Virus genome (UHGV): UHGV-0019120
Direction: 5' to 3' (one strand)
DNA length: 31,192 nt
Source: a virus
Positions 1,695-31,176 of this stretch are shown piece by piece. The position numbers were made by a program, and so were the translations under genes. The notes below the pieces were generated by a model. It had not been told where the DNA came from, ran no database searches, and was given only the letters and a program-made list of their open reading frames with translations. The first letter of the stretch is position 1; each line of letters opens with the position of its first letter.

Positions 1695-1993
1695 GCCACA
1701 GCCCCTCTCAACGGCTTAACTTTGGCTAATAAGGTGTTAAACAACATGGAGTTAGGATTCATGCCAAATGGCAATTCCGGTTTAGCGGAGTAGTACAGGC
1801 AACCATTTATTTTCCTGGTTGTTATCTGTCCTTCGGCAACCATGCTTCTCAGTCTGCAACGCATAGAGTTCTGCGACACACCAATGTGCTCCGCGATTAC
1901 GTCCACTTTTGAACATGGGTGATCGGTCAGGAAATTAATCACATCTTGGGGGTTAATAATTTTGCGTTTCATTGTCGAGGCGTCCTTATACAT
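1691..1993 (-). CDS. putative winged-helix DNA-binding protein
   Basis: 100-aa ORF; central segment VDVIAEHIGVSQNSMRCRLRSMVAEGQI resembles a wHTH recognition helix and wing; AT-rich TATA-motif promoter region directly upstream (1994-2018). Start may be the internal MKRK. Confidence 0.45.
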   Translation of the reverse strand: MYKDASTMKRKIINPQDVINFLTDHPCSKVDVIAEHIGVSQNSMRCRLRSMVAEGQITTRKINGCLYYSAKPELPFGMNPNSMLFNTLLAKVKPLRGAVA

Positions 1994-2016
1994 TTGTATA
2001 AATATATAATTCTATA

Positions 2017-2040
2017 TACGGCGGGAGACGTCCCGCCGTA
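2017..2040 (-). terminator. hairpin downstream of the 2050..3117 gene
   Basis: 10-bp perfect stem TACGGCGGGA / TCCCGCCGTA with 4-nt loop right after the stop at 2050; following tract is A/T-mixed, not a clean U-run. Confidence 0.4.
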
Positions 2041-2049
2041 GGCTTACTG

Positions 2050-3117
2050 TCAGGCTTTCAATAGCGATTCTTTTAGATATCGGGCATCAGCCAGGGCGTT
2101 TGGAGTAATCTTGCGAACCCATGCATTACGGGTTGGACTCCACTTAAAGGCGCGTGATTTAAGCAGCGAACGAATGTTTGCCTCTGGTTTGCCAGGGAAA
2201 TAAAACAGGATGCGGTTATCCTCTGGATCTATCTCCATAGAAAAGCCGTCGTATTCTTCGCGCTGTGCTCCTGTTACAGACTTGACCGATTCAAGCTCCT
2301 TAATACGGCTCTGTAGTCGTTTGATTTCGGCGTTATTGTTGCTCAGTGCGTATGAAGGGAATCCGATGCGCCCACAGAAATCTCCGGCCAGTAACTCTTT
2401 GGCTTCGCTTTCTGTAAACCTGAGATCGATTAATGCAGAAAGCTGCTGTATTTGGTCTTTTTTGTATTTGCGAATGGCCTTATTTGCGGCCTTCATTTTG
2501 ACGTGTGACTTCATGCAGCCTTGCAGCTTACGAAGCAACTTAAATAGCGCATCAGGATCATCAGACGAAATTCCATTACGACCAACACCTGCGGCTTTGC
2601 TCTCGTAGTGTGATGCTTTACTTTCGCATTCAACAAACGCTTTTCTGAATAACGCATCAGCTTTAGACAAACGGCGGCGATGGCCTTTCGCGCTATAATG
2701 GTCAACTAAAATCGGCTGGCCTAACGGGATCACATCCAACAGGTCATGCGCTCGCTTATGCGCTACCGCACCTTCTTTTCTGGCTTTTTCTGCACAAGCA
2801 ATATATCGGGCAAGACGCGCGTTCTGGCGTTCCTGATAGGTGTTTACGTAATCATCTCCGCGCTGCTGCTGTTCAAGCCATGCTTTGCGCAGATCTTCTG
2901 TTACGTCCACCAGCTCCGCAGGGATACAACCAGTTTGGGCTTCATAAGAGTAACCATCCTCATAGATACGCCCATCGTCTTCAACAAAGAAAAAGGTTTC
3001 GTGCTCATCGCTTTTGACCATACGACCATTAACATGGCGTAATAGGTAGCCAGTATCAGTGCTTAACAGGCTGTTAGGGTTGTTGATCCAGTCAGAAATA
3101 ATTACTTGTTTATTCAT
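2050..3117 (-). CDS. hypothetical protein, possibly DUF3560-like
   Basis: ORF track gives 373 aa to 3171; I place the start at ATG 3117 (MNKQVI...) because a GGAG RBS lies about 6 nt upstream and the duplicated promoter block begins at 3124. C-terminal FYFPGKP...FKWSP...W motif recalls DUF3560; unverified. Confidence 0.5.
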   Translation of the reverse strand: MNKQVIISDWINNPNSLLSTDTGYLLRHVNGRMVKSDEHETFFFVEDDGRIYEDGYSYEAQTGCIPAELVDVTEDLRKAWLEQQQRGDDYVNTYQERQNARLARYIACAEKARKEGAVAHKRAHDLLDVIPLGQPILVDHYSAKGHRRRLSKADALFRKAFVECESKASHYESKAAGVGRNGISSDDPDALFKLLRKLQGCMKSHVKMKAANKAIRKYKKDQIQQLSALIDLRFTESEAKELLAGDFCGRIGFPSYALSNNNAEIKRLQSRIKELESVKSVTGAQREEYDGFSMEIDPEDNRILFYFPGKPEANIRSLLKSRAFKWSPTRNAWVRKITPNALADARYLKESLLKA

Positions 3118-3123
3118 CAGATT

Positions 3124-3225
3124 TCTCCGGTTTAACCAGGGCGGGTATCGCTCGGTTTCGGGTATAACCATAGGAAATTTTTTCCCACCTGTAAAGCACT
3201 TTTTATATAAATCTATAATTATATA
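3124..3225. repeat. 102-bp promoter/leader block, copy A
   Basis: 101/102 identical to 11972..12073. Read on the minus strand it contains an AT-rich upstream element, TTTACA-N17-TATGGT promoter, short leader and GGAG RBS. Confidence 0.9.
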
Positions 3226-3286
3226 TTTATAGATTTTCGATGTTCCCGATGTCTACACACCATCAAAACAGCTCAAAATGACACTT

Positions 3287-3664
3287 TTACTCTCTTCGCT
3301 TTTTCAAATAGTCGACAACATACGCCCTGGCTTTTGCCAGCTTCCGGCGATACTGTCTGAGGCTAAGAGAAAGGGCGTGGGCTTTATCAATATGCGGTGC
3401 ATTTATGTCGAGGCCCCGAATCTCCCACGCCCCGTATTCAATTCGGACAACCAGCGCCGCAGTCTCATCAACTACCGTGAGGGCCGTCACCGCTCCCTCT
3501 ATACTGGTTTCCAGTGAGTCATTTGGTGCGCCGCCCCCTCCGGTAAACTGGCAGCGCGTAACCATCATCATTTCTAACATCGACGCGAAACCGCTACGGG
3601 CGTTGCAGCCATTGCGCACCCACAGCGCCCATAGCTCAAACAAGCTATCCAGATCGCGTCTCAC
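3287..3664 (-). CDS. putative Q-like late antiterminator
   Basis: 125 aa; N-terminus MRRDLDSLFELWALW and basic C-terminus resemble what I recall of E. coli prophage Q homologues (Phage_antitermQ-like); last gene of the minus-strand early-type operon. Confidence 0.45.
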   Translation of the reverse strand: MRRDLDSLFELWALWVRNGCNARSGFASMLEMMMVTRCQFTGGGGAPNDSLETSIEGAVTALTVVDETAALVVRIEYGAWEIRGLDINAPHIDKAHALSLSLRQYRRKLAKARAYVVDYLKKRRE

Positions 3665-3667
3665 TGT

Positions 3668-4000
3668 TCAGATCTCCCGTATCGTGACGGGATAAAGCGC
3701 CTCTACCTGCTTTTTCTTCATGATGTAGACGTCTGTTCGCACACCTTTAGTGTCGACACAATCAATCGTCCCATCGTCATAAAACACCATGAAATCAAGT
3801 TTATAAACGACACCACCTGGCAGATGAAAAGGCACCTGCATAAGAAACGTCACAACGCGGCCAGCTTTTCTCAGTAGCTTCAGTTCGCAGTAGTAATCAG
3901 CCTCTTTTTTGCTATCAAAAGCGATATCATCGACAACCGTTTTTTTATTGCCGTATTTGCTTTTCCTTGTCGCTGGTTTGCGAAAGCCGGTATATCTCAT
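3668..4000 (-). CDS. DUF1064-like phage protein
   Basis: 110 aa; YGNKKT...FDSKKEA motif typical of DUF1064 proteins in lambdoid nin regions, as I recall; 4-bp overlap with upstream gene. Confidence 0.55.
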   Translation of the reverse strand: MRYTGFRKPATRKSKYGNKKTVVDDIAFDSKKEADYYCELKLLRKAGRVVTFLMQVPFHLPGGVVYKLDFMVFYDDGTIDCVDTKGVRTDVYIMKKKQVEALYPVTIREI

Positions 4001-4401
4001 TTGGTATCCCCTGGTACTTCACCAAGACTAAGATCAAACCCAATTTCGTCTTTAACTGACTGCGGCAACAGCTCCCACGTCTGCGCACACAAAAATTCAT
4101 CTGTGCCATAACGCTCAACAAAGCGAGCACAATTACTCAGGGGAGGGTGACGAACGGCAATATGCGGAGGCACACGCCCACCACCAGGCACAACACCGCG
4201 ATGATGTGGTGCGCACAACCCAAAGCTATGGAAGTGGCAATTCTCATCAACGCTGCCGTAATCAGGATCGTGATGTAGCTCCGTCCACAGCTCTGGATTC
4301 TCAATTTCACGGCCATCAATAATGCAAGCTATGCAACCCACGTGAGTGAGCACCGCTTGTATATAAAGTTTCTCTTTCTTCGTTGGTGTACGTCCGTTCA
4401 T
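3997..4401 (-). CDS. Cys/His-rich nin-region-like protein (possible nuclease)
   Basis: 134 aa with CxxC ... HH ... CHFH ... C..HH clusters suggesting metal binding; position matches lambdoid nin genes. Family uncertain. Confidence 0.4.
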   Translation of the reverse strand: MNGRTPTKKEKLYIQAVLTHVGCIACIIDGREIENPELWTELHHDPDYGSVDENCHFHSFGLCAPHHRGVVPGGGRVPPHIAVRHPPLSNCARFVERYGTDEFLCAQTWELLPQSVKDEIGFDLSLGEVPGDTK

Positions 4402-4634
4402 CAGCGCCCCTTACCATTGATAAAGAGGTTGAACTCGTTGATTAACTGGACATACATGCTTCTGGCCGCGTAGTTCTTTGCCAGCTCTTTACGGGATGAG
4501 ATCCCGCAAAACTCACGCAGAATCACAGAGGCCTCAGAACTGTTTGAAACGTTCTTCCCTGTTTTACTGGTCAGAAAGCGCCAGAATTGGGGATTCTGGC
4601 AATGCATCGCAGCACCGCGAACATAACTACTCAT
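4401..4634 (-). CDS. hypothetical protein
   Basis: 77-aa ORF translationally coupled to both neighbours (1- and 4-bp overlaps). Confidence 0.35.
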   Translation of the reverse strand: MSSYVRGAAMHCQNPQFWRFLTSKTGKNVSNSSEASVILREFCGISSRKELAKNYAARSMYVQLINEFNLFINGKGR

Positions 4635-5146
4635 TGATGGCCCCCGTCATTTCTGGTGCTTTTCACCGTGCGGCTTCTTAAAAACCTGCCATCACGAACA
4701 ACAGACACTTCTCGTTTACCCAACCTCATTTCACGGCGGTAACATTCAGAAAATGCCTCGTCCGGCATCATATAAATGCGACGCTTCGCCTCCGTATCCA
4801 GAAGGGAACGGCTTGGGGTTACATATAAGAACGACTCATCAATAGGGACAAAACCACGAGCAAGAATTGCTGGCAGAATACCAGGAAGAACGCAGAAAAC
4901 AGCTCCACGATGCAGCAACATCTGGTACTCCATGACCTCCGTAATCCCCGTAACGACTGTTACGGTGTCACGTCTGTTACGGCTGGCAACCAGTCGCTGC
5001 ACACCTCCAATTTTCTGCTCTACAGATAGACGTTTGCTATCGTTATCAATATGATCGATAACAAATCCTTTAATCGTTTGATCAAGGTAGTGCACCACCT
5101 GCGATTGAATCTGGTGATTATCACCAAAGAAGGCCAGAATCATCAT
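4631..5146 (-). CDS. hypothetical protein
   Basis: 171-aa ORF inside the minus-strand operon; no motif recognised. Confidence 0.45.
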   Translation of the reverse strand: MMILAFFGDNHQIQSQVVHYLDQTIKGFVIDHIDNDSKRLSVEQKIGGVQRLVASRNRRDTVTVVTGITEVMEYQMLLHRGAVFCVLPGILPAILARGFVPIDESFLYVTPSRSLLDTEAKRRIYMMPDEAFSECYRREMRLGKREVSVVRDGRFLRSRTVKSTRNDGGHQ

Positions 5147-5637
5147 TCCTCAAGCCTCCCAAGTGCTGAACGCCGGGCGTTGCTAATCTCCTTATGAATC
5201 AGCTCGATATCGCTGGAATCTTTATTCTTAAGCTCCAGCACGGTAATCGCATCACGAACCTCTGAAACGGTTACGTGTGAGTGTTTCCAGCGAGCAATGA
5301 ATCGCGGACCGCGTAGATTGCAACGCTCCGCAGGCATCCCCAGCTCAGAGAAAACCGCTTTCAGCCTTGATAAGCAGTTAACAGGGAGATTCCCTTTGAT
5401 CTTGTTCTGCCGAACCGATGTGCCATCGCTACGCTGGCGCTGACGTTCGGCAAAATCTGCCGCCCATTGCTGGACGTTAATCCGGCCTTCCGAATACGCC
5501 ACCAGCAGCGTCAGGTTATCCGCACGAGGGAATCTCTCGAAGCGATACCAGGCACCAATCAGTGATGACGTAAAGCCAAACTTTCTGGCAACACCAATTT
5601 GGCCTCCATTTTCGTCAACCCACTCCTGAAAGGTCAT
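5143..5637 (-). CDS. putative Cro/YdaS-like HTH regulator with C-terminal extension
   Basis: 164 aa; N-terminal GGQIGVARKFGFTSSLIGAW...P resembles the YdaS/Cro-type HTH; transcribed divergently from the CI-like gene with shared operators. Confidence 0.45.
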   Translation of the reverse strand: MTFQEWVDENGGQIGVARKFGFTSSLIGAWYRFERFPRADNLTLLVAYSEGRINVQQWAADFAERQRQRSDGTSVRQNKIKGNLPVNCLSRLKAVFSELGMPAERCNLRGPRFIARWKHSHVTVSEVRDAITVLELKNKDSSDIELIHKEISNARRSALGRLEE

Positions 5638-5656
5638 TTAACGAACTCCAGTTAAA

Positions 5657-5774
5657 ACCACGATACGTGGTATTAAAACCACATATCGTGAGTTTTTCAA
5701 TGGGCGAAACAAAAAATAACCTTCTATTTGTGGTCCACCTCTCGTCTTACCATGTGAAAACCACTAAATGTGGT
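5657..5774. promoter_or_regulatory. operator cluster in the divergent immunity promoter region
   Basis: ACCACGATACGTGGT (5657-5671), imperfect ACCACATATCGTG (5678-5690), half-site TTTGTGGT (about 5727-5734), ACCACTAAATGTGGT (5760-5774); all follow ACCAC-N5-GTGGT. Confidence 0.6.
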
Positions 5775-5811
5775 AATGTATAAATAACCCACCATTCACG
5801 ATTGATGAGAC

Positions 5812-6468
5812 ATGAAAAGCAACGACGAGAACATCAAGAAAGAAATAGGTCTGCGCATTCAGACTCTACGGAAACAATCCGGCATGACTGCCGGAGATCT
5901 CCAGCAAGTCACTGGAATAGGCTTAAGCACCTTGCAGAACTATGAGGCCGGATTAAGACAACCATCTATACCTGCCATCAAGAAAATCGCGCACGCCCTG
6001 AAAGCATCAGCGCCTTATATCGCGTGCTTAACAGATAACCCGTTCCCACCCCAGAATACTAACGCTCCTGTTATTCCTGGGCTTGTAGCTATAAAAAATG
6101 ACATAGCATCGCACGCCGGAGAAAAGCCAGTGCTGGCGATAGAACAGGAGATTCTACGAAGCAAGAACATCAACCCATCGTCTCTGTCAGTTCTCCAGAG
6201 CAACGATGAGTTAATGTCACCAACAATATCCCCAGGCTCCCAAGTCCTGATTAATACAGACGATACAGAGATTCATGAGGGGATCTATGCCCTTGAAGAC
6301 AGAAATGGCCTGGTTGTTTTGAGGCACTGTAGAGTCATACCGGGTGACAATGCTGTTATGCTGTCAACCGAAAGGGATGCTGAAATGAACACTAAGCATC
6401 TGAATAACGAGGAATTTAAGCGTTATAAAGTTCTTGGCCGCGTAGTTAGTGTTGTCAACTGGTTATGA
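5812..6468 (+). CDS. CI/LexA-type prophage repressor (HTH_XRE plus S24-like C-terminal domain)
   Basis: 218 aa; N-terminal HTH (LRKQSGMTAGDLQQVTGIGLSTLQNYEAG), C-terminal LMSPTISPGSQVLIN and FKRYK...GRVVSVVNWL resembling the LexA/CI Ser-Lys autocleavage domain. Confidence 0.75.
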   Translation: MKSNDENIKKEIGLRIQTLRKQSGMTAGDLQQVTGIGLSTLQNYEAGLRQPSIPAIKKIAHALKASAPYIACLTDNPFPPQNTNAPVIPGLVAIKNDIASHAGEKPVLAIEQEILRSKNINPSSLSVLQSNDELMSPTISPGSQVLINTDDTEIHEGIYALEDRNGLVVLRHCRVIPGDNAVMLSTERDAEMNTKHLNNEEFKRYKVLGRVVSVVNWL

Positions 6469-6510
6469 TACACAGCACGGCGAAAGCCGTGCATTTCTAC
6501 GCTCAAAAAA

Positions 6511-6525
6511 ACCACATTTTGTGGT
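6511..6525. promoter_or_regulatory. operator copy downstream of the repressor gene
   Basis: AAAACCACATTTTGTGGTTTT palindrome (core 6511-6525) adjacent to TTGACA at 6528. Confidence 0.5.
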
Positions 6526-6560
6526 TTTGACAACATGTAAAAGTATAAAAGAGGCTACGC

Positions 6561-6935
6561 ATGGAATTACATACAGCCAATAAAAACGAAACTCTGATCA
6601 CTGCTGGAATCGAAATCCAAGCGTTGAACATAGCGATTGAGTGTATGTTATGCCAAATCATTGATAATGAGAAAGATATCGACTGGATAGAATCTATCCT
6701 TCATCTGGCATCAGAACAAAAAGTCTGCCTCAAAACGGCCTTACAATACGATGTGCCAGCGGTATCGAAGCTGTGCCAGCCATTGATGGCATATAACAGG
6801 GCTATTATTTCTGTATGCCTCATGATTCTTGATGAAACCCCCCCTCTTAGCGACCGCTCAGAAGCTGCTCTAACCCTCTCACGTAAACAGCGACAGCTAG
6901 CAAATCAACTGATATCAACGATAGCTGACCTCTGA
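6561..6935 (+). CDS. hypothetical protein
   Basis: 124-aa ORF downstream of the repressor; AAGAGG RBS; followed by hairpin 6940-6959. Confidence 0.4.
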   Translation: MELHTANKNETLITAGIEIQALNIAIECMLCQIIDNEKDIDWIESILHLASEQKVCLKTALQYDVPAVSKLCQPLMAYNRAIISVCLMILDETPPLSDRSEAALTLSRKQRQLANQLISTIADL

Positions 6936-6939
6936 CTGC

Positions 6940-6959
6940 AAGCGGGCTAACGCCCGCTT
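6940..6959 (+). terminator. hairpin after the 124-aa ORF
   Basis: AAGCGGGC-TAAC-GCCCGCTT stem-loop; downstream tract only moderately T-rich. Confidence 0.4.
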
Positions 6960-6960
6960 A

Positions 6961-7062
6961 TATGATTATAGATTTATATAATTATATAAAACGCTTTTCA
7001 TCAGCCAAAAAGTTGGTTATGCTTACCTCGTTCTATAAATATAGATTTATAGAATTATATAA
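6961..7062. promoter_or_regulatory. centromere-like / operator repeat arrays upstream of parA
   Basis: Two AT-rich blocks (6961-6988, 7033-7062) carrying TATAGATTT / TATAGAATT 9-mers, partly as direct copies offset by 8 bp. Confidence 0.5.
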
Positions 7063-7085
7063 CCAAACACATGGAGTCTCGACAA

Positions 7086-7739
7086 ATGACTATCTCTGTA
7101 GGTATTTTCAACGGAAAAGGCGGCGTAACCAAATCAACAATTGCCCGTGCTTTAGCAGTTGCTTATGCAAAGGCTGGCTGGAATGTATGCCTGATCGATA
7201 TGGATGTGCTTAACGGAACGGTAACGCGTTGGGTACAACGCAGAATGGCCAACAATATCGAACCAGCAATCGCGGCGCAGCCGTGCGGCACACCATCACA
7301 AGTCCAGAAAATCATCGAATCAGAAGTATACGACCTGGTTATCGTCGATGGCGGTGCCTACGCATCTGAATCAGTACCGAAGCTATCTGAATTTCTGGAT
7401 ATGGTTATTTTGCCAACCCGATTCTCTACCGATGACCTGGAAACCACCGTTAACACTGCTCACGGCATCGTTAAAAAGGGTGTACCAATCAAGAAAATTT
7501 GCATGGTGTTTTCCGGCGCGGCTGAAAACGAAGCTGACTATATTGAAGCCCAAGAGTACCTGGCTAATACGCCATACTTTGTTGTCGATAAGTACATTCC
7601 CCACAAGCCAGCTCTGAGCAAAGCTCAGGATAAGGGCTTAAGCCTCATTGAGTGCTCATACGTTGCGCCACGCAAAAAGGCAGACGACGTTATTCAGGGG
7701 ATTATCAACCAGCTTGAGGCTCTGACTACTGCCGCATAA
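7086..7739 (+). CDS. parA: ParA/ParF-type partition ATPase
   Basis: Deviant Walker A FNGKGGVTKST, A-prime motif VCLIDMD, B-like DLVIVDGGA; start placed at ATG 7086 (GGAG RBS) rather than track start 7071. Confidence 0.8.
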   Translation: MTISVGIFNGKGGVTKSTIARALAVAYAKAGWNVCLIDMDVLNGTVTRWVQRRMANNIEPAIAAQPCGTPSQVQKIIESEVYDLVIVDGGAYASESVPKLSEFLDMVILPTRFSTDDLETTVNTAHGIVKKGVPIKKICMVFSGAAENEADYIEAQEYLANTPYFVVDKYIPHKPALSKAQDKGLSLIECSYVAPRKKADDVIQGIINQLEALTTAA

Positions 7740-7770
7740 TATATAATTATAGTTTTATAGATTTATATAA
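7737..7770. promoter_or_regulatory. TATAG(T/A)TTT repeat block upstream of the RHH gene
   Basis: TATAGTTTT and TATAGATTT direct copies offset 8 bp, between parA stop and the next start. Confidence 0.45.
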
Positions 7771-7782
7771 GAGGGGATACAC

Positions 7783-8031
7783 ATGGCCGCACCATCAAAA
7801 CCACCAAAGAAGAACAGCAAAGGCGTACCGCCATCGATCGAACAACCGCAGGTTTTCGACCCGACTGAAACGCCAACCAGAACCAAATCAGGTGGGGCAC
7901 AAATGGCGTTTAACGTCGACCCTGAATTTAAACGCGAGTACAAAACGTTCGCCAGCTCAATGGATATGTCATTGAAAGAAGTGCTGACAAAGTCTTTTGA
8001 GTTACTCAAGGCTCAATACAACCAGAAGTAA
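7783..8031 (+). CDS. putative ParG-like ribbon-helix-helix centromere-binding protein
   Basis: 82 aa; disordered basic N-terminal tail then MAFNVDPEFKREYKTFA...MSLKEVLTKSFELL, a beta-strand/helix/helix RHH pattern; directly downstream of parA; AGAGGGG RBS. Confidence 0.55.
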   Translation: MAAPSKPPKKNSKGVPPSIEQPQVFDPTETPTRTKSGGAQMAFNVDPEFKREYKTFASSMDMSLKEVLTKSFELLKAQYNQK

Positions 8032-8252: not shown

Positions 8253-8276
8253 TAAAAAAGGCCCCCGAAGGGGCCT
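8253..8276 (-). terminator. intrinsic terminator for the minus-strand small gene
   Basis: GGCCCC-CGAA-GGGGCC hairpin; A6 on the plus strand gives a U-run on the minus strand. Confidence 0.55.
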
Positions 8277-8281
8277 AATCG

Positions 8282-8404
8282 CTACTTGCTGCTAATGTTT
8301 ATCGTCACATTCAGAGCGTTATCAGTAATCTTCCAACCCTCCCCATGTGGCGTAAACAAAGCCCCAGTAACAACGATAAAAATACACATACAGTATTTTT
8401 TCAT
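8282..8404 (-). CDS. small hydrophobic peptide (about 40 aa)
   Basis: MKKYCMCIFIVVTGALF... with AAGGG RBS and own terminator; track ORF 8282..8464 is longer. Confidence 0.3.
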   Translation of the reverse strand: MKKYCMCIFIVVTGALFTPHGEGWKITDNALNVTINISSK

Positions 8405-8802
8405 TGTATGGCCCTTACAGGCCGTTTCACGGCATCCCCACCGACGAAAACAACGCGAGAGCAAGCACGGCTGCTTGTGCTTGCATGTACGGCAACGGAG
8501 AATCCTCCCCTAAAGTCGGTGCCCGGGTGCGAATCGGCGGGAAGGTCCACAGGTATTTTACGATTATTTTAAGATTAGTAATAGGAAAGAAATTAAACGA
8601 AAAAACTCGTTTATTTTCACAAAATCAGTAACCTACCCACAATCTGTGAGTTTGCAGGCACAACAAGAACCACAATTTTTTGAAGCATAATAGTGGACTA
8701 TTATTACCTTTTGGGTAAAATTAACTTGCTGCTTGTGCTTGCGTGGTTGTTTATACAACGACGTTATGCTGAAAGGACCGCGAATCCGATCAGCACGAAA
8801 GA

Positions 8803-8883: not shown

Positions 8884-8994
8884 GTATTGACATGAATGCG
8901 CCATTGGTGGACACTTTCCGAGCCGTAGCAAAATCTACGGTCGGGATTGGAACCCCGTAGACACAATGGCGCATACCGCGTTAGCGGTTTTTTT
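8884..8994 (+). ncRNA. candidate structured small RNA (c4-like antisense regulator)
   Basis: Extended -10 TGtTAAAAT near 8866-8874; 9-bp outer stem 8898-8906/8964-8972 enclosing two hairpins, one with loop ATTGGAAC; ends at short hairpin plus T7 (8975-8994). No ORF. Confidence 0.35.
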
Positions 8995-9160
8995 ATGCGT
9001 AAAGCACTGCTACACCCAAATTATGGTGGGGCGTGCGGGGGAGTCGTAAGACTCGCCGGTTCGTCATTGTGTCCGGTAGTTCCAACCCTGCACGTCTCAC
9101 CACCCAATGATTGGAACCTGACGGTGGTGAGTATCCTTAACCTTTAAGGGAATCATCACA

Positions 9161-9352
9161 ATGACAAACCTACCCCATGACTATTACGTCAACCTCGTAA
9201 AGATCCTTCTCAAGAAAGCCTCATACGCCGATAAATTCCGCCTGGCTGAAATCATCGAGCGCGAAGCTATGCGCATCGCCAGCAACGATAACGCTGTTTC
9301 TGACGCAAAAATCTCCCTCGTAACCAAAGTAGTTATGGGAGGTGCAAAATGA
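9161..9352 (+). CDS. small protein translationally coupled to the antirepressor (icd-like position)
   Basis: 63 aa; AAGGGA RBS; stop overlaps start of the next gene (ATGA-type overlap at 9349-9352). Confidence 0.4.
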   Translation: MTNLPHDYYVNLVKILLKKASYADKFRLAEIIEREAMRIASNDNAVSDAKISLVTKVVMGGAK

Positions 9353-10494
9353 AAACGCTTCCGACCGTTAACACCCTACAGCCTATCCTGCATAACCAAA
9401 TCCCTGTCATTACTACCGAGTTACTAGCACAGCTTTACGGCACTGAGCCGGTGCGTATTCGCCAGAATCATCATGAGAACAAAGCACGTTTCGTTGAAGG
9501 GAAACACTTTTTCAAAGTTGTTGGTAATGACCTTAAAGAATTGCGGGTAGCTTTAAACTACTCTCAAAATCCAGTTTCACCTAAAGTCCGCTCCCTCATC
9601 CTCTGGACAGAACGCGGGGCTGCACGTCACGCTAAAATGCTCGAAACCGATCAGGCGTGGGATGTATTCGAACGGCTGGAAGACTGCTACTTCAACCAGA
9701 ACGCGCAAACGGCCGCGACCGTAACCGTCTCACCAAACAATGCTCGTGAGGTTGTCGATACGCTCAACGCTAAACCAATGTATTACGTTAAGGTGTGCAA
9801 CAACGAGCCACTCACAACCTCAGCCGATGTTGCCCAGGCATTCAGCACCACAAACAATTCCATCGTTATGGCCATCGATGCGTTACGCATTCCTCGCACA
9901 GCTGCGGCGCGTCACTTCTTTAAAGAACAACGACCGCTGGAAGGAAGCGACCGCGAAATAACAATCTATCGCATGACAAAAGACGGATTTACCTTGCTCA
10001 TGGAAAGTATCGACGGTCCAGGCGTGAAGGATATCAAGCTGGCCTACATTGAAGCCTTTAACGCTATCAGCAGCATGTTAAAGGCAGAATACGAGCGAAT
10101 GCTATACAACCGACTGTATCAGGAAACAAAGATTATCCGAACGGCAACAGAACATCATCGGCTATTAACGGAACCAAACTACCGCAAGACACTAATCAAA
10201 GAGTTTGACAAGGCGACGGAGAAAACTAAAGCGGCACTAAATCTACCAACAATGACTAAAGATGATGTGATATCAGCCTTACTTCTTGATCTGCTCAGAA
10301 ACGTCAGAGCACTTATCAGTTTTGACGAAAACCTGAATCCTCAGCTCAAGCTACTACCACCGACAGGCAAAGTAGTCGACCAGGCTGATCACAACAGCAT
10401 ACTCAGCGTTCTGGATGCAAACCTGCCAGCCAGGACACTACAGGATCTGATAAAAACATGTGCTGATAAGCTGGCACAGAAAAGCAGACCATAA
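9349..10494 (+). CDS. phage antirepressor / regulatory protein (ORF6N-like plus Rha-like domains)
   Basis: 381 aa; N-terminal ITTELLAQLYG...EGKHFF...ILWTERGAARHAKMLETDQAWDVFERLEDCYF resembles ORF6N; central TTSADVAQAF...YRMTKDGFTLLM...IEAFN resembles Rha. Confidence 0.7.
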   Translation: MKTLPTVNTLQPILHNQIPVITTELLAQLYGTEPVRIRQNHHENKARFVEGKHFFKVVGNDLKELRVALNYSQNPVSPKVRSLILWTERGAARHAKMLETDQAWDVFERLEDCYFNQNAQTAATVTVSPNNAREVVDTLNAKPMYYVKVCNNEPLTTSADVAQAFSTTNNSIVMAIDALRIPRTAAARHFFKEQRPLEGSDREITIYRMTKDGFTLLMESIDGPGVKDIKLAYIEAFNAISSMLKAEYERMLYNRLYQETKIIRTATEHHRLLTEPNYRKTLIKEFDKATEKTKAALNLPTMTKDDVISALLLDLLRNVRALISFDENLNPQLKLLPPTGKVVDQADHNSILSVLDANLPARTLQDLIKTCADKLAQKSRP

Positions 10495-10693: not shown

Positions 10694-11230
10694 AATTCCA
10701 CCATAACCGATAGCCACCCTTCAGACACAACCCCCCCTCCCCCCATACAGGGTGTCCTTTACCGGAGTTCCGGCCCCTTCTCAAAAGCATCAAAAAAAGC
10801 TCGAGATCGAGTACCGGAACTCATGCCACCAGATAGCTCCACATCGTTTCCAATGCTTCGCCGCCGTGTGCGCCCTGTGGCCCACAATCATGCCATTGGT
10901 CGTCTGATATACCTTCTTCTGCTCATTGAGCACAGGCGAGTTGTCGCACTCCTGCCTTTCTCAGACTCGACTTAGTTTAGATCGCTGTTCCTGGCTTGCG
11001 TCAGCACACTTTCCCCTTGTACGCATACCCGCGCGCCACTCCGCCCAAAAACACCGAACCCAACGAAGTGGCAAAGACAACGACGCGAGCGTGAGTCTGA
11101 AACAGGCACCAGTAAAAAAGGGGTTGCAGGCGCAAAAAGATTTGATTATCTTTAGACGCAAGAAAGCCGCCCCAATCAAGAGGTGTCTTTTTAAATCCAG
11201 CCTACCAAGCAAGATTTAAATTTCAGACTG

Positions 11231-11583: not shown

Positions 11584-11964
11584 TTACTTAACGAGGAATA
11601 AAAATGGTTTATTGTTCGGCGGTGTAATCGGGGCTGGCTCGCTTTTGCTCATGCGATCAGTGTACCAGGCCAGCTCCTTGTCAAAGTAAGCCTGATTAAA
11701 ATAGGCCATGAATGTAGTTTCAAATCCATAACGACCGCTAATACGCAGCATCTGATTGCCGTTCTCTGTTTCCAGATATACCTGGGCACGTTCCTGATTC
11801 TCCTTCAGCCAGGTTAAAGCCTCATCGCACGAGGACACACGATACTCATCATCGTAGCCGTCATCGATGCGGCTTGAAGAAGAACGGCAAATCACGCCGA
11901 CAGAACCAGCCAGGATAGTTTGAATTTTAAGGAAAGCGTTTTTGCGGATTTTAATCATGCTCAT
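11584..11964 (-). CDS. hypothetical protein expressed from promoter block copy B
   Basis: 126 aa; GGAG RBS; immediately downstream of repeat copy B; followed by a 27-bp perfect palindrome (11549-11575). Confidence 0.5.
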   Translation of the reverse strand: MSMIKIRKNAFLKIQTILAGSVGVICRSSSSRIDDGYDDEYRVSSCDEALTWLKENQERAQVYLETENGNQMLRISGRYGFETTFMAYFNQAYFDKELAWYTDRMSKSEPAPITPPNNKPFLFLVK

Positions 11965-11971
11965 CGGGTTA

Positions 11972-12073
11972 TCTCCGGTTTAACCAGGGCGGGTATCGCT
12001 CGGTTTCGGGTATAACCATAGGAAATTTTTTCCTACCTGTAAAGCACTTTTTATATAAATCTATAATTATATA
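11972..12073. repeat. 102-bp promoter/leader block, copy B
   Basis: Single mismatch relative to 3124..3225 (CCTACC vs CCCACC). Confidence 0.9.
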
Positions 12074-12520: not shown

Positions 12521-12543
12521 GTAAGGCCCCAATGGGGCCTTAC
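12521..12543. terminator. hairpin between convergent genes
   Basis: GTAAGGCCCC-AAT-GGGGCCTTAC 10-bp stem; flanks only weakly U-rich. Confidence 0.45.
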
Positions 12544-24227: not shown

Positions 24228-24435
24228 TATTGCGTCTCCACGGAGGAAAATTGTTTACTGATATTGGCATAACCGGAGCATCAGGAACTTTAAGAATAAT
24301 TCCCGCAGAAAAAAGCACCGTAAAGCGGTGCTCAGTATTAGCATCAATAAGAAGATAAGACAGGTACTCATTACCATACAACTTTAAAGCGATACTATCC
24401 CATGAGTCCCCTTGAACCGTTCTATAATCATCCAA
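24217..24435 (-). CDS. tail protein X-like (LysM domain)
   Basis: 72 aa; YRTVQGDSWDSIALKLYGNEYLSYLLIDAN is a LysM-like motif. Confidence 0.65.
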   Translation of the reverse strand: MDDYRTVQGDSWDSIALKLYGNEYLSYLLIDANTEHRFTVLFSAGIILKVPDAPVMPISVNNFPPWRRNSVT

Positions 24436-30443: not shown

Positions 30444-30784
30444 ATCGGCATTCCTCTGTTAGTATTAACAGTGAGAGTTATTTCCAATACACCAACATTA
30501 TCTGATACTTCATCAACAATATAATTTTTACCGTTGATTTTCATTGACTGGTCTTTGACAGGGAGAACAGGAAAATCTTTTCTTGAAACAAATAATATTA
30601 TTTGCCCCTGATTTATTCCCTCTGCAAACTCAGCATATGAGCGTTTATTCCGCTCATGAATAAGGTCTGTATCAATAACGGCAAGGATATCCTTGCCGTC
30701 TATGTTATATGTATCGGCAAACTCTTTTTCATTGAGGAATATTGCAGAAATATCTTGCGCTATAACCTCTTTGAAGGAGTTCAT
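30440..30784 (-). CDS. hypothetical virion protein
   Basis: 114 aa; translationally coupled to neighbours. Confidence 0.4.
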   Translation of the reverse strand: MNSFKEVIAQDISAIFLNEKEFADTYNIDGKDILAVIDTDLIHERNKRSYAEFAEGINQGQIILFVSRKDFPVLPVKDQSMKINGKNYIVDEVSDNVGVLEITLTVNTNRGMPI

Positions 30785-31176
30785 TACTTCTTATTACCTT
30801 TTTTTTGCGTTGATTTTTTCGCATTACTGGTATCAGAAGTAGCTACAGATTCAGATGAATCATCAGCAACCATTTCCTCATTGCCGCCATCATCCTCAAA
30901 CTCAACCTCGAATACACAGCTACCCGCCTCCGTTCGCGTAATCAACCCCGCGTCCACAGCATCATTAACAGCAGATGCGTATCCATGCTCAAAAGCTAAC
31001 TTAGCAGCATCATAGCCCCCAGCCGATGCCAAATCACCATCCTCTTCGGTGGCAATAGCATGTCCTGACGCAATCAGTTCGGCAATTCTGGAGTTATCCA
31101 TTAGCCCATTAAGCAAACGGCCCGCTTTTAGCGAGCCGTGGCTTATCGTATCAATGTTTTTAATCAGTCTGGCCAT
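30784..31176 (-). CDS. hypothetical virion protein with acidic/basic C-terminal tail
   Basis: 130 aa; AAGGTGG RBS upstream of ATG 31176. Confidence 0.4.
   Translation of the reverse strand: MARLIKNIDTISHGSLKAGRLLNGLMDNSRIAELIASGHAIATEEDGDLASAGGYDAAKLAFEHGYASAVNDAVDAGLITRTEAGSCVFEVEFEDDGGNEEMVADDSSESVATSDTSNAKKSTQKKGNKK

Follow-up and report, generated by a model that had tools for sequence, protein, structure and literature searches.

The 31,192-nucleotide stretch of UHGV virus genome UHGV-0019120 analyzed here (the window, at its full length) contains an early-right operon of six genes that ends beside a repeated promoter cassette, raising the question of whether the last gene codes for a Q-type antiterminator and, if so, where its product would load. 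The source element is a ~47-kb Escherichia phage-plasmid: window positions 2000-8000 are 100% identical to the circular E. coli plasmid pSCU-204-5 (NZ_CP053252.2, 47,295 bp) and 99.3% identical to Yersinia phages vB_YpM_39/41/44, and there are ~62 related plasmids of 46 to 51 kb in Escherichia, Salmonella, and Klebsiella hosts. The complete plasmid is annotated with an IncFII-type RepA, a RelE/ParE toxin module, ParA, and a cI-like repressor, together with a long run of genes on one strand that includes the early genes, a DUF3560 gene, holins and a lysozyme, an MT-A70 methyltransferase, ParB/Srx proteins, terminase, portal, capsid, and a contractile tail with P2-like genes. The minus strand of the window corresponds to the rightward direction of the phage-plasmid, and features that fall outside the window are given in coordinates of the complete plasmid (L003). 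The relatives compared include L004, L005, L012, the Klebsiella relative L011 (87% protein identity), and the distant L008 and L009, whose Q-like proteins are ~44% identical. Literature searches returned nothing characterizing the plasmid family or the Yersinia phages, and no link could be made between this element and the pSLy3 phage-plasmid group, which is part of the SSU5 supergroup.

The last gene of the operon (gene 6) closes the early operon in every relative examined and codes for a 125-amino-acid (aa) protein, which we conclude from sequence profiles and a structure model to be a remote relative of the Q21-type antiterminators and not a strict member of that family. The best explanation of the locus as a whole, to which we give a probability of roughly 0.5, is that this Q21-like protein acts in antitermination, with the neighboring cassette as its nearest candidate loading site. 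The protein matches phrog_5285, a family of unknown function, and, over its full length, NCBIfam PA0613_fam (NF051483; E 2.5e-4, which is far under the model's 100-bit cutoff). A word-indexed homology search yielded only 31 close clusters; an exhaustive hidden Markov model search with the alignment of these clusters raised the number to 130 representatives (E <= 0.001; about 130 clusters when grouped at 50% identity), 122 of which make up the wide family alignment, A3. Searched against the PDB, the A3 profile matches Q21 (6JNX/6P18) with E 1.3e-5, profile positions 5-92 aligning to Q21 residues 11-95, including LELWGAWV. In hhalign comparisons, the wide family scores 93.8% (E 1.7e-7) when Q21 enters as one sequence and 95.0% (E 3.7e-8) when the Q21 family is represented by an alignment of PF06530 proteins. 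PF06530 itself is matched by 10 of the 122 members at E <= 0.01 when these are scanned one by one; phrog_79, labeled "anti-termination protein Q-like," is matched by 21 and phrog_943, with the same label, by 5, and PA0613_fam is matched by 61 (best E 6.7e-9). A few family members also match ECF sigma models. On these sequence relationships, the phrog_5285 family is distantly related, as a sister group, to both the Q21/Q933W antiterminators and the PA0613 family.

The predicted fold is of the same kind. The AlphaFold2 (AF2) model of the 125-aa protein (predicted local distance difference test score [pLDDT], 77) has an N-terminal helix carrying an ELWxxW motif, packed on a sigma-R4-related fold whose C-terminal part is a sigma-region-4-like helix-turn-helix (HTH) domain, and four of the top five Foldseek matches in the PDB are to Q21, with weak E values but probabilities of 0.77 to 0.94. 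In both structure papers (10.1101/651190; PMC6606751), Q21 is likewise described as adding an N-terminal helix to a sigma-R4-like fold. The Gly-rich segment at residues 19-47 (GCNARSGFASMLEMMMVTRCQFTGGGGAP), which holds most of the invariant positions of the close family, is predicted to be disordered (pLDDT < 50) and aligns to the H1-H2 linker, H2, and H2-H3 linker of Q21. These form the Q21 "torus," which refolds on RNA polymerase and threads the nascent RNA, and the low pLDDT of residues 19-47 fits a part that would fold only on the polymerase.

The first-pass annotation had placed the Q-like gene 60 bp from a duplicated promoter, and the adjacency is confirmed, with a measured gap of 62 nt between the end of the gene (3287) and the promoter block. 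The block at 3124-3225 (cassette A) recurs at 11972-12073 (cassette B; 102 nt, 99% identity), and a third copy, cassette C, lies outside the window at L003 33617-33730; three copies are present in most of the ~62 related plasmids and in all three phage records, an arrangement that distinguishes this element from the Q21 layout. Inside the block, on the minus strand, is the promoter TTTACA-17-TATGGT, for which 0 matches are expected by chance. It is followed by a 45-nt leader that is almost invariant among the copies despite the unrelated genes downstream; in L011, the leader core GAAACCGAGCGATA is unchanged and the neighboring bases differ, and a GAAAC(C)GAG motif 7 to 10 nt after the -10 is conserved, the L005 cassettes included. 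A pair of ATACCCG copies in the leader, spaced by 17 nt, was considered as a binding element and rejected, both copies being altered in L011 next to invariant bases. The cassette is the first promoter after the Q-like gene in the window, L004, and L012.

Four canonical intrinsic terminators, all co-directional, are present on the rightward strand of the plasmid (Table 1). None lies between the candidate early promoter (PR) and cassette A, and cassettes A and C are upstream of all four; the terminators follow these two cassettes by 0.5 to 3.6 kb, with genes in between, and not within ~200 nt. As the terminators are downstream of cassettes A and C, with one just ahead of the holin, processive antitermination is plausible. 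L011 keeps the pre-holin terminator with a different stem sequence, there are five co-directional terminators in L005 and at least seven in L012, and in L008 and L009, where the Q-like gene also ends the early operon, a strong terminator is just before or shortly upstream of the holin, 3 kb further on. The pattern argues for processive antitermination across the whole group, and the Q21-like protein is the only candidate for it that we identified; we lean toward the 125-aa protein having this activity.

The -35 of each cassette is directly preceded by an AT-rich array of 8-bp units (TTATATAA / TTATAGAT), and matching arrays, none of which is expected by chance, are present at two sites upstream of parA, between parA and a gene for an 82-aa protein, and at two further intergenic sites. 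The iteron unit is AAGATATA in L004 and TTAATTAAATAAT in L005 and L012; although these differ from the unit in the window, the arrays at the partition (par) locus match the cassette arrays within each of these elements. Since the par and cassette iterons co-vary, one element-specific DNA-binding protein is likely to read both sets, and this suggests that the partition DNA-binding protein also represses phage promoters. The ParA assignment is confirmed (CbiA, E 1.7e-12). The 82-aa protein encoded after it is by position the obvious candidate iteron binder; its predicted topology (two helices preceded by a disordered tail and a short extended segment) is compatible with a ribbon-helix-helix protein. 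It has no Pfam match, its AF2 model is of low confidence (pLDDT 65, predicted template modeling score 0.28), Foldseek gave noise, and hhalign against a ParG sequence is not significant (E 0.05). The iterons were also considered as the element bound by the Q-like protein, which is unlikely given that they are upstream of the -35, are the same repeats as at the parA promoter, and co-vary with those repeats in the relatives.

In the proposed mechanism, the early-right operon would be transcribed from a repressor-controlled promoter beside the cI-like gene, and the 125-aa protein made from it would bind DNA at a promoter-proximal site and then move onto RNA polymerase. The modified polymerase would read through the pre-holin terminator, the two terminators after cassette C, and the tail-operon terminator. 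The triplicated cassette, with its iterons, TTTACA-17-TATGGT promoter, and leader, is the nearest candidate loading site, and initiation there would probably be gated by a second, partition-linked DNA-binding protein through the iterons common to the parA locus. Loading at the cassette is the more tentative part, and we regard it as rather doubtful.

Several observations weigh against this mechanism, some concerning the protein and others the cassette. The 125-aa sequence alone matches no Pfam family, even at E <= 10, and no PDB sequence, and the Q homology anticipated for the product of 3287..3664 is not detected with the single sequence and emerges with the wide-family profile. The link to Q21 depends on the wider family, because the close-family profile alone gives an hhalign probability of just 27.7%; searched against the PDB, that profile returned only a weak HTH match. 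The significant Q21 alignment is limited to the N-terminal two thirds of the protein, and the DNA-binding motif is a canonical HTH (helices 91-97 and 102-124, with a turn of 3 to 4 residues), whereas Q21 has a helix-turn[loop]-helix with a minor-groove loop of ~20 residues. The Q21 binding element is a direct repeat, with TGAGCA at both -21 and -13 (PMC6606751); in the cassette, the 17-nt spacer between the -35 and -10 contains no direct repeat of this type. The -10-like element downstream of the cassette promoter is weak, with GATACC at about +12 to +17 matching at 3 of 6 positions and lacking the final T; its L011 counterpart, GATAGT, matches at 4 of 6, with A2 and T6. Cassette A has no terminator within ~3.6 kb downstream, unlike the Q21 layout, in which one lies within 100 to 200 nt of the adjacent promoter, and the leader itself was rejected as an RNA element or terminator, having only a weak hairpin (z -1.8 to -2.7), no U-run, and no Rfam match. 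The Q-like gene and the cassette are neighbors in the window, L004, and L012, and this arrangement is lost in L011 (one intervening gene), L005 (three), and L008 and L009 (no equivalent cassette). The cassette iterons, moreover, point to control by another DNA-binding protein. The expectation that a qut site would be found exactly at the cassette is therefore unsupported, given the missing Q21-like repeat, the lack of a convincing sigma-dependent pause element, the absence of a terminator within ~3.6 kb, and the loss of adjacency in relatives. Cassette B is likewise weakly placed as a second Q-responsive entry point: it drives a short unit of two small genes that runs into a convergent antirepressor-like gene, which makes it a poor and unlikely late entry point, and cassette C fits that role better.

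The sharing of iterons raises a serious possibility, a little short of even odds, that the triplication of the cassette has nothing to do with the Q-like gene: the cassettes would form a promoter regulon under repression by the partition-locus protein that binds the iterons, keeping lytic-side genes silent in the plasmid state, and their adjacency to the Q-like gene would be incidental. The 8-bp-period iterons common to the parA promoter, the gap between parA and the 82-aa gene, and the upstream region of every cassette favor this explanation, as do the matched par and cassette iterons of L004, L005, and L012 and the extra gene between the Q-like gene and the cassette in L011. It accounts for the iterons but not for the conserved 45-nt leader, its binding protein is a candidate only, and it leaves room for Q loading at these promoters, such that antitermination from the cassettes can stand beside it.

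A different loading site is also conceivable. The protein may be Q-like but load at a separate late promoter in a conserved non-coding leader of ~200 nt (L003 ~30660-30850, outside the window) that directly precedes the pre-holin terminator; the leader and terminator would then be a PR'/tR'-type unit ~4 kb downstream of the gene, and the cassettes would be ordinary middle promoters repressed through the iterons. L003 and L011 agree more closely in this leader than in the sequence on either side, and the strong terminator is 20 nt before the holin start. The leader also holds ACCACGATATGAAGGTT with a T-run after it, an element that nearly duplicates ACCACAAATAGAAGGTTATTTTTTG in the gap between the cI-like gene and the Cro-position gene (window 5734-5710; ACCAC..GAAGGTT-T run), and this pairing of the PR region with the late leader recurs in L005, L012, and L009. 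L008 and L009 have no cassette and still keep a terminator immediately ahead of the holin or a short way upstream, and in L005 a promoter-like site is followed 50 to 60 nt later by a terminator. The leader could be a repressor-controlled late promoter with a terminator ~90 nt downstream, a classical PR'/tR' arrangement. Nevertheless, the L003 pre-holin gap has no consensus-grade sigma-70 promoter on the rightward strand, no binding repeat or pause element was identified in the leader, and the 4-kb distance from the gene is unlike the classical layout, and we consider loading there unlikely. More improbable still is that the 125-aa protein works at initiation, as a DNA-binding activator or repressor of the sigma-region-4-like kind that resembles a minimal late-gene activator, with the terminators bypassed by internal promoters such as cassette C. 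Its canonical HTH, the ECF sigma model matches in a few family members, and the presence of cassettes and iteron arrays in several intergenic gaps, where transcription could restart, are in keeping with such a role. However, the significant match is to the non-HTH N-terminal part of Q21, torus segment included, and there is no promoter-like site in the 20 nt between the 30815 terminator and the holin or in the 20 nt between the 34914 terminator and the next gene.

The closest known system for gene 6 is Q21/Q933W (PF06530; 6JNX, 6P18-6P1C), with which its product shares a remote but significant profile similarity over the N-terminal ~80 to 100 residues, including the ELWGAW helix and the torus segment, the sigma-R4-like fold, and the place of its gene, which closes the early-right operon and precedes the terminators and lysis genes. 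The product differs in being 37 residues shorter (125 versus 162 aa) and in falling below the PF06530 threshold. No sequence relationship is detectable to lambda Q (PF03589) or to AlpA of P. aeruginosa, and the folds differ outside the HTH. The PA0613 family (NF051483) is the same in size and similar in its position ahead of a block of lysis and tail genes. In the R/F-pyocin cluster of P. aeruginosa, the PA0613 gene lies immediately before the holin gene; no function for it is reported in the papers searched, and from the sequence relationship it may be an unrecognized Q-like antiterminator, a testable idea on how the long pyocin operon is transcribed. If gene 6 codes for an antiterminator, phrog_5285, an unannotated family of phage proteins, would gain a function, and the Q21-type "nozzle" antiterminators would come to include a smaller protein whose HTH is plain; the main value is a testable function for a family that includes relatives of the pyocin-cluster protein, and experiments are accessible because a member of the plasmid family is present in E. 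coli ATCC 25922 (NZ_CP009073.1).

The partition locus resembles three compared systems, ParF/ParG of TP228 (type Ib), the omega regulator of pSM19035, and the dispersed centromeres of N15. Shared features are a small ParA with a small protein after it and, at the par promoter, short repeats arrayed with an 8-bp period; as at the omega and N15 centromere sites, the par repeats recur at other promoters of the replicon. The differences are that the extra sites here are on phage lytic-side promoters and that the ribbon-helix-helix fold of the 82-aa protein is putative. A phage-plasmid layout with partition-locus repeats on lytic-side promoters bears on the choice between plasmid life and lysis. 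A speculative synthesis, which we hold to be improbable in its entirety, is that all three cassettes load a new Q21-like clade, that the partition protein holds all three shut in the plasmid state through the shared iterons, and that the PA0613 relatives of this clade are the missing processivity factor of the ~30-kb P. aeruginosa pyocin operon.

The operon itself is organized largely as the first-pass annotation described it, with six translationally coupled minus-strand genes: consecutive open reading frames overlap by 4, 4, 1, and 4 nt, the final junction is a 3-nt gap, all six are annotated coding sequences in NZ_CP053252.2, and every one matches a PHROG family at E <= 1e-36. The predicted DUF1064-like gene is borne out, and the gene described as Cys/His-rich and nin-like is a Ref-type RecA-dependent nuclease. 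The "Cro-like" designation of gene 1 fits its position as the first gene, divergent from the cI-like repressor, and otherwise draws on a weak match of residues 1-53 to phrog_35 (transcriptional repressor; E 0.0023); the protein has no Pfam or PDB match. Upstream, in the 174-nt gap beside the cI-like gene, a palindrome with 14-bp arms (5691-5658) spans the -10 of the candidate PR and is likely its operator, and more palindromes of the ACCAC..GTGGT type are present; the putative PR and operator were assigned by reading this gap.

Table 1. Features of the window and of the complete plasmid (L003) that bear on the Q-like gene and the promoter cassettes
Feature	Coordinates	Strand	Evidence or remarks
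Iteron array between DUF3560 gene and next gene	1987..2016		Repeat search
DUF3560 gene, first driven by cassette A	2050..3117	-	PF12083, E 3e-31; annotated start
Cassette A leader, to ATG of DUF3560 gene	3118..3166	-	Holds GAAACCGAGC (3159-3150), invariant in all copies and L011
Cassette A promoter	3167..3195	-	TTTACA-17-TATGGT
AT-rich iteron array upstream of cassette A -35	3204..3233		8-bp period; 0 expected by chance
Gene 6, 125 aa, divergent Q21-like putative antiterminator	3287..3664	-	phrog_5285; PA0613-related
Gene 5, 110 aa, DUF1064	3668..4000	-	PF06356, E 6.8e-19; phrog_190 (label Holliday junction resolvase), E 9e-38
Gene 4, 134 aa, Ref-type RecA-dependent nuclease	3997..4401	-	PF16786, E 1.6e-11
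Gene 3, 77 aa, unknown function	4401..4634	-	phrog_5358, E 1e-39
Gene 2, 171 aa, unknown function	4631..5146	-	phrog_7047, E 5e-92
Gene 1, 164 aa, Cro-position protein	5143..5637	-	phrog_7452, E 3e-104
Candidate PR	5658..5700	-	TTGAAA (5700-5695), 17 nt, TTTAAT (5677-5672)
cI-like repressor gene	5812..6468	+	HTH_3, E 4.5e-11, and weak Peptidase_S24, E 0.0018 (Pfam); divergent from operon
Two iteron arrays upstream of parA	6959..7061		Repeat search; chance expectation 0
Iteron array between parA (7071-7739) and 82-aa gene (7783-8031)	7740..7769		Repeat search
126-aa gene driven by cassette B	11584..11964	-	Followed by small HTH gene at 10961-11212
Cassette copy B	11972..12073	-	Iterons 12052-12073, promoter 12043-12015, leader, ATG at 11964
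Tail-operon terminator	24309..24333 (L003 5778-5798)	-	Between tape-measure gene and next tail gene; only one of the four in the window
Pre-holin terminator	L003 30815-30842	rightward	11-bp stem, nine U, -22 kcal/mol; 20 nt before holin start
Iteron arrays outside window	L003 32468-32507, 33609-33640		Repeat search
Terminators after cassette C	L003 34215-34238, 34914-34935	rightward	Strong, intrinsic

Other features of the element include several RNA genes. A tRNA-Met gene (L003 32638-32713, outside the window) closely follows an iteron array and is flanked by the lysis cassette on one side and the gene for the MT-A70 methyltransferase on the other. Within the window, a full-length match to ryfA RNA (141.8 bits) is at 8254-8550 on the minus strand; ryfA is a chromosomal locus for a small RNA and small toxin, here carried by a phage-plasmid. 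Two GC-rich palindromic terminators (12521-12543 and 8259-8276) set plasmid-maintenance modules apart from cassette B and the par operon. Rfam matches to isrK (67.7 bits; 8922-8994, plus strand) and C4 antisense RNA (77.8 bits; 9019-9107, plus strand) immediately precede two genes (9161-10494, plus strand), one of 63 aa and one of 381 aa with an ORF6N domain, and this isrK/C4/ORF6N set is a P1 immI-like antirepressor module, convergent on the cassette B unit.

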